15,908 bases of DNA, taken from Myxococcota bacterium (GTDB taxonomy: Bacteria > Myxococcota_A > Bradymonadia > UBA7976 > UBA1532). Shown piece after piece: positions 4,531-6,188 of the stretch. A program made the translations under genes and the position numbers. Location: NCBI GenBank assembly GCA_036337435.1, contig JAYZEG010000071.1, positions 1 through 15,908 on the forward strand. Direction: 5' to 3'. The stretch's first letter is position 1. Each line of letters begins with the position of its first letter. The notes under the pieces are model-generated. The model was not told where the DNA came from, made no database searches, and saw only the letters and a list, made by a program, of their open reading frames with translations.

Positions 4531-4562
4531 ACGCCCGCTCCACCTTACTCTGTGGCGGGCGT
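4531..4562 (-). terminator. GC-rich hairpin spanning the transglutaminase stop codon; possible intrinsic terminator
   Basis: ACGCCCGC (4531-4538) pairs with GCGGGCGT (4555-4562), with an inner CAC/GTG pair. Only a short CTTT follows on the minus strand. Confidence 0.45.
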
Positions 4563-6188
4563 TACCGTCAGCGCGAAGTCTGTCACTCGGCCTGAATGAT
4601 TCTCCAGATGATCGGAAATGGACAGCTTCCAAGTACCGCCCAAATCTCCCACCGGCGCTGGATCTAGTCTCATTTGAGCACCAAAATCTTCCCCTGTCCC
4701 ACTGCCTTGGGCCAGAACTTCCCATGTTTCTCCAGTGGGGGAAACGAGGCCGATCATTAAATCAACTACGGAGCCATGCTCGACGCTGACCTTTAAATCC
4801 ACAATCCCCTTCAAACCAGAGCCTACGACGAGCTCAATGTTCGTCCCGCTTGCATCATTATCAGGAATGTCCACAGGGACATTCGCCTTGAACTCAACGA
4901 CGTCATTCGAAACCGGCATTTCAGGACCAACCGGCTCCCTGGCCATTGAAATCAATTTCCGAACGTGGGTCAGGTCGAGATGCGGAACCGATGATGCGTA
5001 CGCACGACGCGGGTTCCACAGAAAGTCTGGATGTTTACGTCTCGAATTCCCGGTCCACTCGCCACCGATGATTTTCTTGTCCTCGTCCAGTTCGAGGATG
5101 TACGTGTAGCTGTCACGTCGCTCGTAGCGACTTTGCTCGGCTGGCTCATCAGATTCATCCGACTCGGTGATGTAGGTTAGTGTAGCGGCTACCTTGTAGA
5201 AGAACCGAGCGTCTGGGTTGTGTATGTATTCCTTAATTGGCAGCGGATCTTCGCCTTCTTCAGTCGCGGGAACAGGTTGTCCAACGGCTTCAGCAGCTTC
5301 CTGCAATGTTACTTCATCCAACGAGGTGACGTCGTAAGCAACGACAGGCTGATTCCAAACCTCGTAGTTGTACGTTCTGTCCTCGGCGAAGGCGACTTTG
5401 TTGAGACCAACATAATTGGTCATGATGATGTGCAACGTACCGGGGTTTGTGTCACGGCATCGTACGTCCTCCGCACGGCCTTGCTCATCTCGCTTAACTT
5501 CCTTGTCATTACAGCGTCCTCCGATCATGTCTGCGCTGGCTCGGTTGTACGCTGCGATTGTTAACGCCTCAATGTCACCGGTGTGGAATGTTACGCCGTT
5601 ATAGGTGACACTATGAAACGGGCGGTCTTCCAACATGGCCGCTGGTACCCAGGCGTGGCAAAGGCCAAACCAAGTCTCAACACCGTCTCGGTCATTACAC
5701 TCGTCTGTCTCGCCATCATTGTCATTGTCGACTCCATCGCGGGCTCGCGCATTACCCATTCGACTCGAGATATGGTTGGCAAGAGGGCCTAACTTGTCGT
5801 AATAGGCCGAATCGAATTCCTTGCAATTCGACCCACTGCGATAGGGTTTGAGGTCCATGAAGCCTTCTGGCGGCTCCCAACCATTAAACGCTTGGTCATA
5901 TTTCTCCGCCGGTGACATCTCTTCGGAGCGCCAGCGATAATTGATGCTGTCGCGGTGGGTTGGCCAGTATGACGAGGGCCAGATCTCACGTTCACTTCGA
6001 CCGGACGTCGGAAGAGCTTGAAGTTCGGTTTTCAGCGCAATCCCCCGAAAGCGAGTCGGAGAATTGGCACTGTTCCAACGCTCCTTTTCTAGGCGCGTCT
6101 GCCCACTCGGTTCATCGAGCTGACTGCAGCCGAAGAAAGTGGCCAGAACCACCGTAACAAACAATCCACTGAGATGGCTGGTGCGCAT
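4545..6188 (-). CDS. Lipoprotein: GP42-like transglutaminase-elicitor domain plus C-terminal proprotein-convertase P-domain (547 aa)
   Basis: Start re-called to ATG 6188 (GGAG 8 nt upstream; MRTSHLSGLFVTVVLATFFG|C lipobox). Motifs: WPSSYWP..DSINYRW, SPAEKYD.AF, TWFGLCHAW.PAA, VTYNGVTF, DTNPGTLHI..TN, EVWNQPV, YTYILELD...IIGGEW, HPDFLW. The C-terminal DIPDND...H....DL.I.LVSPTG...GTWKLSISD....SG segment matches a P-domain. Confidence 0.88.
   Translation of the reverse strand: MRTSHLSGLFVTVVLATFFGCSQLDEPSGQTRLEKERWNSANSPTRFRGIALKTELQALPTSGRSEREIWPSSYWPTHRDSINYRWRSEEMSPAEKYDQAFNGWEPPEGFMDLKPYRSGSNCKEFDSAYYDKLGPLANHISSRMGNARARDGVDNDNDGETDECNDRDGVETWFGLCHAWVPAAMLEDRPFHSVTYNGVTFHTGDIEALTIAAYNRASADMIGGRCNDKEVKRDEQGRAEDVRCRDTNPGTLHIIMTNYVGLNKVAFAEDRTYNYEVWNQPVVAYDVTSLDEVTLQEAAEAVGQPVPATEEGEDPLPIKEYIHNPDARFFYKVAATLTYITESDESDEPAEQSRYERRDSYTYILELDEDKKIIGGEWTGNSRRKHPDFLWNPRRAYASSVPHLDLTHVRKLISMAREPVGPEMPVSNDVVEFKANVPVDIPDNDASGTNIELVVGSGLKGIVDLKVSVEHGSVVDLMIGLVSPTGETWEVLAQGSGTGEDFGAQMRLDPAPVGDLGGTWKLSISDHLENHSGRVTDFALTVTPATE

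Follow-up and report, generated by a model that had tools for sequence, protein, structure and literature searches.

Background

GP42, a cell-wall enzyme of the crop pathogen Phytophthora sojae and the source of the classic plant immune elicitor Pep-13, is cut from a precursor; its residue numbers and Ca2+ data are used here as general background or from secondary sources. The solved GP42 chain (PDB 3TW5, chain 3tw5_A) spans residues 163-528. GP42 is a transglutaminase (PMC4915311) and the only characterised member of its family. The same review, citing Reiss et al. 2011, confines GP42 homologues to oomycetes and some marine Vibrio and has an oomycete ancestor acquire the gene from Vibrio. PMC10318531 describes the GP42 site as an unusual 'CH', whose His is in contact either with an Asn from a core strand or with an Asp from a helix outside the core.

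Here we analyse a bacterial gene of this family. It lies on a stretch of 15,908 nucleotides (the window; contig JAYZEG010000071.1 of assembly GCA_036337435.1), at positions 4545-6188 of the minus strand, where the reverse complement is a single open frame encoding a protein of 547 amino acids, P0002 (residues 1-547). P0002 belongs to the GP42 family by sequence and by predicted fold, retains the catalytic residues, carries a lipobox ahead of the enzyme and a P-domain behind it, and is encoded by a gene that stands alone. We consider it probable, if well short of certain, that P0002 is a lipid-anchored GP42-type Cys-His acyl-transferase with a P-domain, acting on proteins at the cell surface. 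New here are the confinement of the P-domains of this genome to such enzymes, the split of the lipobox between sets of homologues, and the placement of the oomycete enzymes in the tree. Taken alone, the gene is a solid but ordinary find, being of a common type with four paralogues in its genome; of wider interest are the actual distribution of the family and the new placement of the oomycete enzymes.

Catalytic domain and predicted fold

The Pfam family TGase_elicitor (PF16683) matches residues 47-403 of P0002 over profile positions 8-343 of 361 (E 2.4e-70, 237.6 bits, cut-off 25). With phmmer, the GP42 chain 3tw5_A, the sole solved relative found by sequence, is matched at E 9e-45 and 156 bits. 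In the resulting alignment WFGLCHAW of P0002 stands opposite WFGISHAW, and the blocks RDxNP, EVWNQPV, IIGGEW and HPDFLW are common to both proteins. The Ser of the crystallised chain presumably replaces Cys290. NCBIfam contains no family model that recognises P0002; the search returned one weak match to an acidic double-disulfide repeat (E 0.1).

An AlphaFold model of P0002, based on 43 relatives and hence a predicted and not a solved structure, reached a predicted local distance difference test score (pLDDT) of 83.7 and a predicted template-modelling score (pTM) of 0.70. Foldseek ranked 3tw5_A first for this model (E 3.4e-23, target-normalised template-modelling score 0.77), followed by the P-domains of furin, Kex2 and an Aeromonas sobria protease. 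VIA-align superposed model residues 36-420 on 3tw5_A with Z 30.8 and a root-mean-square deviation (rmsd) of 3.3 Å over 318 residues, at 31% identity. Homology with GP42 had been proposed by the first-pass annotation of this DNA on the strength of short motifs, and profile, sequence and predicted fold agree in bearing it out.

The motifs quoted in that annotation are all present in P0002: the lipobox FFGC ending in Cys21, WPSSYWP (70-76), SPAEKYD (92-98), WFGLCHAW (173-180), NPGTLH (248-253), VWNQPV (277-282) and IIGGEW...HPDFLW (373-391). WFGLCHAW puts the catalytic pair at Cys177-His178, in agreement with the numbering used there, and the coordinates given for the gene stand as well. Its strand had to be corrected to minus, a plus-strand reading of 4545-6188 being ruled out by a translation full of stops.

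Predicted active site and conserved positions

Conservation was followed in a main alignment of 43 aligned relatives of P0002 and in a wider set of 70 catalytic domains, the rows of the tree described below. Cys177 is kept in 42 of the 43 relatives and His178 in all of them. Also invariant in the main alignment are Cys21, W173, G175, W180, C226, D234, C244, N248, H253, W278 and P281, as well as G375-G376 and P387-D388-F389-W391. Asn279 and Asp234 are conserved and, by sequence alignment, stand opposite their GP42 counterparts; Asn279 is kept in 69 of the 70 tree rows.

The lone exception is P0056, a P-domain-bearing relative from the main alignment, in which Ser stands in place of the catalytic Cys and Lys in place of Asn279. 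From its sequence, P0056 is likely an inactive pseudo-enzyme inside the subfamily, and the joint loss of Cys177 and Asn279 suggests that both residues are functionally tied. Inactive forms therefore do arise in this family, and P0002 might in principle be a catalytically silent binding protein, an adhesin keeping only the fold. We find this hardly credible, as P0002 retains Cys177, His178, Asn279, Asp234 and every invariant alignment position.

Cys226 and Cys244, present in all 43 relatives, probably form a disulfide, because the two cysteines either co-occur or vanish together: both are found in all 57 bacterial tree rows outside the HCN variants, and both are missing from all nine oomycete rows and all four rows of HCN variants. 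These variants belong to a divergent bacterial subfamily (L092, L113, L122, L137, L160, L164) with W-G-H-C-N and not W-G-x-C-H, so that His precedes Cys and Asn follows it. The four that entered the tree (L113, L122, L137, L160) lack Cys226/Cys244 and form a clade of their own (support 100/98).

Ahead of the catalytic helix lies an acidic loop, a candidate Ca2+ site, and its pattern D.[DN].[DN]G..DE is found in 28 of the 43 relatives. The VWNQPV motif corresponds to the stretch where the Pep-13 peptide begins in GP42. We rejected this correspondence as a sign of plant interaction, VWNQP being a core motif of the family.

In summary of the comparison with GP42, the two proteins have in common the family, the fold, the adjacent Cys-His and the motifs VWNQPV, IIGGEW and HPDFLW. 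Unlike P0002, GP42 is a secreted eukaryotic glycoprotein with neither lipid anchor nor P-domain; it has a Cys-rich loop at the site of the acidic DxDxDG-like loop, lacks the Cys226/Cys244 pair and falls in a neighbouring clade of the tree, not in that of P0002.

The C-terminal P-domain

The C-terminal part of P0002 is matched by the Pfam P-domain PF01483 at residues 463-541 (E 1.4e-8, 35.1 bits, cut-off 21). Residues 428-547 of the model superpose with VIA-align on furin with Z 13.8 and an rmsd of 2.3 Å over 116 residues, and on Kex2 and the Aeromonas sobria protease with Z 13.2 and 11.8. The P-domain named in the first-pass annotation is thus recovered both by profile and by fold, and the matches of both P0002 domains lie far beyond chance.

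Furin, Kex2 and the A. sobria protease have the same C-terminal beta-sandwich of a secreted enzyme. In these proteins, however, it comes after an S8 catalytic domain, in P0002 after a papain-fold enzyme. Pfam detected in P0002 no subtilisin-like S8 domain, PF16683 being the sole domain besides the P-domain, and P0002 is therefore no proprotein convertase. Public names of relatives, such as 'proprotein convertase P-domain-containing protein' or 'subtilisin-like proprotein convertase family protein', refer to the accessory domain only.

The source genome (4.38 Mb, 87% complete) encodes four GP42-type paralogues, each of which has a lipobox Cys and the CH motif. They have 547 residues and one P-domain (P0002), 540 and one, 442 and none, and 721 and two; the other three are located on contigs C55 and C79. 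All four PF01483 matches in the genome sit within three of these paralogues. This suggests that the P-domain is the enzyme's own accessory module, not one borrowed from local convertases. Elsewhere in the family the enzyme is combined with other modules, mostly placed C-terminally as well, namely PPC, PF26780 and PF05986 in Myxococcota and ricin lectin, PPC and chitin-binding domains in Gammaproteobacteria, and one family member from EukProt (P0341) has CUB-like matches. Such swapping of C-terminal modules argues that this end of the protein aims the enzyme at an outside target or stabilises it there.

Predicted lipid anchor

The N-terminus of P0002, MRTSHLSGLFVTVVLATFFG-C, passes a PROSITE-style lipobox rule coded in a script. 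All 43 aligned relatives retain Cys21, and the same genome encodes Lgt (E 2.8e-58) and LspA (E 1.2e-40) side by side on contig C41. The earlier assignment of a lipoprotein signal is in line with these results, and P0002 is supported as a bacterial lipoprotein by its signal, with lipidation predicted.

The lipobox is unevenly distributed among the homologues. The rule was met by 93 of 119 matches starting with Met in the P0002 subfamily and by 84 of 113 in a subfamily of short or PPC-bearing Myxococcota proteins, versus 0 of 116 matches to a Vibrio query. The 26 misses in the P0002 subfamily are mostly near-lipoboxes or wrong or truncated starts. Evidently, the anchor is a trait of two Myxococcota-dominated match sets, not of the whole family.

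An anchor conserved in these two sets and absent from the Vibrio-type set, together with the presence of four paralogues in one genome, would also suit an enzyme that faces the periplasm, tethering or cross-linking envelope proteins of its own cell, with neither surface exposure nor outside targets; this is the envelope cross-linker of the first-pass annotation, taken strictly. Also in its favour, Ser at position +2, the residue found in P0002, is not known to act as a retention signal. Against it, non-anchored relatives with lectin or chitin-binding modules point to targets outside, no conserved envelope-gene neighbours were found, and sequence alone cannot give topology. We rate a periplasmic role as quite improbable.

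Possible function of P0002

On the favoured reading, of a lipid-anchored acyl-transferase working at the cell surface, P0002 would be exported by Sec and lipidated on Cys21 by Lgt and LspA, and a linker of about 15 residues would tether it to a membrane, probably the outer membrane and perhaps on the outward side. Cys177-His178, aided by Asn279 (of VWNQP) and Asp234, would form a thioester with a protein-bound glutamine side chain under release of ammonia. From there the acyl group could be handed to the amine of a lysine, which would create an isopeptide cross-link, or to water, which would amount to deamidation. The acidic loop by the catalytic helix may confer Ca2+ dependence, as in GP42, and the P-domain (428-547) could be a dedicated accessory module serving as structural buttress or as target binder. 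The role that we favour is cross-linking or modification of surface or extracellular proteins, either of the cell's own matrix or of prey. We infer this chemistry by analogy with GP42; Ca2+ dependence, membrane and face, and biological role are likewise inferred.

Several points weigh against this reading. D234 is not conserved beyond the Myxococcota P-domain clade and the oomycetes, and because its conservation is so restricted, the identity of the third catalytic residue is uncertain. The acidic loop is absent from 15 of the 43 relatives. Three contigs from RNA libraries (X15, X16, X18; 209-227 nt) fall inside the gene with 0-2 mismatches, but DNA carry-over is possible, and they fall short of showing transcription; we count them neither as expression nor as habitat evidence. 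The same holds, as to habitat, for 14 DNA runs labelled seawater or marine, which contained at most 0.47 of the sampled words. A literature search, with subscription journals largely outside it, found no activity reported for a bacterial member and no paper tying the family to Myxococcota. P-domains and PPC domains are modules characteristic of secreted proteases, several relatives are named 'peptidase' by NCBI, and the papain-like fold makes hydrolysis chemically as plausible as transfer.

The last points lead to a second reading, in which P0002 is a surface hydrolase, that is a cysteine protease, an amidase or a protein-glutamine deamidase, using the same Cys-His with water as acceptor, for example for digesting or disarming prey or matrix proteins. 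The fold belongs to a superfamily with a wide range of reactions, as set out in PMC10318531; besides the protease-like accessory domains, this reading can claim the 'peptidase' names, found in UniRef as well as NCBI, and the frequency of the family in Myxococcota (at least 31 loci) and Bdellovibrionota (at least 30) among the matches listed below. Nevertheless, those names are automatic, the residues common to GP42 are conserved in P0002, and the sole characterised member, GP42, is a transglutaminase (PMC4915311). We consider a hydrolase unlikely, yet an alternative to be kept in mind. A role at the surface of a predator, on its own matrix or on prey, would be in keeping with the multiple paralogues and with the concentration of the family in Myxococcota and Bdellovibrionota. 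Should the enzymes of this family in bacteria be active, they would make up a class of surface protein-modifying enzymes that is concentrated in predatory lineages.

Distribution of the family

The first-pass annotation had implied that a protein of this kind is rare, and this could not be upheld. A homologue search with P0002 gave 1453 proteins at E <=1e-3 among 7999 scored candidates; both PF16683 and the P-domain are found in 114 of the best 120 of these 1453 matches, and the family is picked up by automatic annotation. PF16683 is present in 87 of 301 genomes drawn evenly from the phylum (79 of 272 when limited to at least 90% completeness and at most 5% contamination) and in 11 of 14 genomes of the source organism's own family, versus none of 14 control genomes. 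A phmmer search with P0123, a short lipoprotein from Myxococcales, against 1.84 billion representative proteins yielded 2580 matches at E <=1e-3, 1770 at <=1e-10 and 509 at <=1e-30. The bacterial reservoir of the family is thus much larger than the statement 'oomycetes and some marine Vibrio' implies, and the lipid-anchored, P-domain-bearing form is typical of the phylum.

A scan of DNA with degenerate EVWNQPV gave at least 120 stretches, of which at least 87 encode a family member and 33 among those listed do not. By record titles, the 87 loci among the matches listed comprise at least 31 from Myxococcota, at least 30 from Bdellovibrionota, at least 6 from 'Deltaproteobacteria', at least 4 from Thiotrichales, at least 2 from Desulfobulbaceae or Electrothrix, at least 1 from Methylococcales, at least 8 with an unspecific Proteobacteria label and at least 5 others; this tally is a sample, and the lack of Vibrio in it carries no weight. 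Homologues in marine Vibrio had been mentioned in the first-pass annotation and do exist: among five Vibrio-group genomes located via a 16S primer, two (Vibrio sp. AND4 and V. coralliilyticus) have the family, and no member turned up in V. harveyi DSM 19623, V. atlanticus and A. fischeri ES114.

Homologues were also seen in chytrids (P0462, P0483 and P0502, from Fimicolochytrium jonesii, Spizellomyces punctatus and S. sp. 'palustris'), a second eukaryotic group with the family, outside the published 'oomycetes and Vibrio only' statement. The two that were checked, P0462 and P0483, have Cys-Asp (WEGICDGW) instead of Cys-His.

Relationship to the oomycete and Vibrio enzymes

Sequence similarity to GP42 is greatest among the short Myxococcota proteins. 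Against 3tw5_A, phmmer scores are 241 bits for P0123, 156 for P0002, 117 for the Vibrio protein P0244 and 98 for P0341 of EukProt. Like P0002, the short/PPC Myxococcota lipoproteins (represented by P0123, from a metagenome-assembled genome of Myxococcales, and P0238 of Pendulispora rubella) belong to this phylum and family and have the CH motif and the lipobox. Unlike P0002, they lack a P-domain, some carrying PPC, PF26780 or PF05986, and they are far more GP42-like, sharing the Cys-rich loop and the IPTWFGICH context. The Vibrio proteins (P0244 of AND4 and that of V. coralliilyticus) have in common with P0002 the catalytic family, the CH motif, VWNQP and the Cys226/Cys244 pair. They differ from it by a Sec signal lacking a lipobox, by a C-terminal ricin lectin in place of the P-domain and by falling in a separate clade.

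Oomycete sequences were not among the best 120 matches of either P0123 or the Vibrio query and were reached via the search of representative proteins, which contained Pythium insidiosum, Lagenidium giganteum, Plasmopara halstedii M81C, Phytophthora cinnamomi and Pythium oligandrum. Three oomycete or oomycete-like proteins (P0364, P0365, P0366; 1106-1231 residues) indicate that some oomycete members have two tandem TGase_elicitor domains, that of Pythium insidiosum, P0365, scoring 933 bits over two stretches.

For the tree, 70 catalytic domains were hand-picked, before any tree was computed, from more than 400 proteins and loci; 364 columns were analysed by IQ-TREE under LG+C20+F+G4 with a careful search. 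The tree is unrooted, many of its metagenomic rows have no taxon, and chytrid homologues were left out. The nine oomycete rows (six named, three unnamed) form one clade (100/100). They group with 15 Myxococcota rows, among them short and PPC-bearing ones, in a set of 24 (ultrafast bootstrap 87, Shimodaira-Hasegawa-like approximate likelihood-ratio test 97), a grouping that is below the tool's 'starred' threshold on bootstrap. P0002 and its three paralogues are found in a clade of 15 rows made up of P-domain proteins plus Kofleriaceae (99/98). The three Vibrio rows lie inside a clade of nine Gammaproteobacteria (100/99), itself nested in a 22-row clade with Bdellovibrionota, Thiotrichales and Desulfobulbales (100/100). 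A clade of Vibrio and oomycetes, named from the literature beforehand, was rejected: forcing it costs 140.7 log-likelihood units (p of the approximately unbiased test, p-AU, 2e-78).

Judged from these sequences, the nearest bacterial relatives of the oomycete enzymes are Myxococcota, not Vibrio, and within Myxococcota the short/PPC subfamily, not the P-domain clade of P0002. The suggestion of the first-pass annotation that the gene bears on transfer between bacteria and oomycetes holds, in that the oomycete enzymes stand beside a Myxococcota subfamily; the connection runs through the short/PPC lipoproteins and not through P0002's own clade. As the tree is unrooted, the only clue to the direction of transfer is that the oomycetes nest within bacterial diversity. 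It is conceivable, though we regard it as doubtful, that oomycete GP42/M81 come from a Myxococcota-type lipoprotein lineage and not from Vibrio, that in the hosts of origin the lipid-anchored enzymes serve predatory bacteria as contact tools, cross-linking or deamidating surface proteins, and that P0002 is one of four such tools in a Bradymonadia-like predator.

Gene start and feature coordinates

The start codon of the P0002 gene is placed at the ATG at 6188. This start is supported by a GGGGGAG run 7 nt upstream and by the closest relatives, P0003 (87% identity) and P0004 (74%), both of which have 547 residues and the same N-terminus. A longer frame reaching back to 6590 was discarded; it would encroach on the divergent cytochrome/TPR gene, and the relatives show nothing that corresponds to the extra part. 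A scan of 4100-6700 for promoters and terminators gave counts not above those of shuffled sequence, and an Rfam scan of the window gave no match.

Table 1. Features of the P0002 gene and its product (positions in the window; residue numbers of P0002)
Feature	Position	Strand	Basis and remarks
Coding sequence of the P0002 lipoprotein	4545..6188	-	Open reading frame and translation; full-length relatives of equal length and start; stop codon 4545-4547
Shine-Dalgarno-like GGGGGAG	6196..6202	-	Read from sequence; 7 nt upstream of ATG; putative function
Signal peptide with lipobox, residues 1-21 (FFGC 18-21)	6126..6188	-	Cys21, predicted lipidated first mature residue, conserved; lipobox rule passed
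Low-confidence linker, residues 22-35, presumed flexible tether	6084..6125	-	pLDDT <50 at 20-30; GP42 fold match begins at 36
GP42-type (TGase_elicitor) papain-fold catalytic domain, residues 36-420	4929..6083	-	PF16683, phmmer, Foldseek, VIA-align
Acidic DNDNDGETDE-C loop, residues 154-164, candidate Ca2+ site	5697..5729	-	Just ahead of catalytic helix; putative Ca2+ binding
Adjacent catalytic Cys177-His178 ('CH' in WFGLCHAW)	5655..5660	-	Opposite S-H of GP42 chain; conserved
Cys226...Cys244 pair, probable disulfide	5457..5513	-	Both in 43/43 relatives
VWNQPV core motif, residues 277-282	5343..5360	-	Identical in GP42 alignment; counterpart of start of GP42 Pep-13 peptide
C-terminal P-domain beta-sandwich, residues 428-547	4548..4907	-	PF01483; VIA-align

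Paralogues and neighbouring genes

The nearest paralogue of P0002 is C55a, with 67% identity in the tree columns. Among public genomes the closest locus, L006 (76% identity), is labelled Bradymonadia, and of the best 80 loci nearly all carry the label Myxococcota or a former name of that phylum, in accordance with the Myxococcota-like host proposed by the first-pass annotation. L006 and L007, two close relatives, share with the window a gene order around this gene of coiled-coil protein, oppositely oriented multihaem cytochrome/TPR protein, acyl-CoA dehydrogenase-like protein, MeaB and MazG. At seven more distant loci none of the P0002 neighbours recurs next to the homologue. The gene therefore stands alone, and its context proposes no substrate gene.

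Divergently from the P0002 gene, 6427-8655 (+) encodes a 742-residue protein with multihaem cytochrome c motifs (Cytochrome_C7, paired CXXCH) and a long TPR region. Its true start is probably downstream of 6427, similarity to L006 starting at residue 51, and it adjoins the transglutaminase gene only in the two closest relatives. Further on, 10434-13034 (+) encodes an 866-residue protein with many Cys-rich repeats of MopE type, 'DDDCDGxxDE' (PF11617, E 3e-21). Its tail (Gly-Cys, a hydrophobic stretch and RKRRR) weakly matches a model of the myxosortase-dependent C-terminus (E 0.0019, below the cut-off) and may be a sorting signal of MYXO-CTERM type. The 512-residue product of 13271-14809 (+) has a faint TIGR04551 match only, and its gene overlaps by 4 nt with 14806-15906 (+), which encodes a lipoprotein-like protein with a segment of bacterial lipase N-terminal / VolA-Pla-1 phospholipase type. 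The two products may constitute a pair of outer-membrane protein and lipase.

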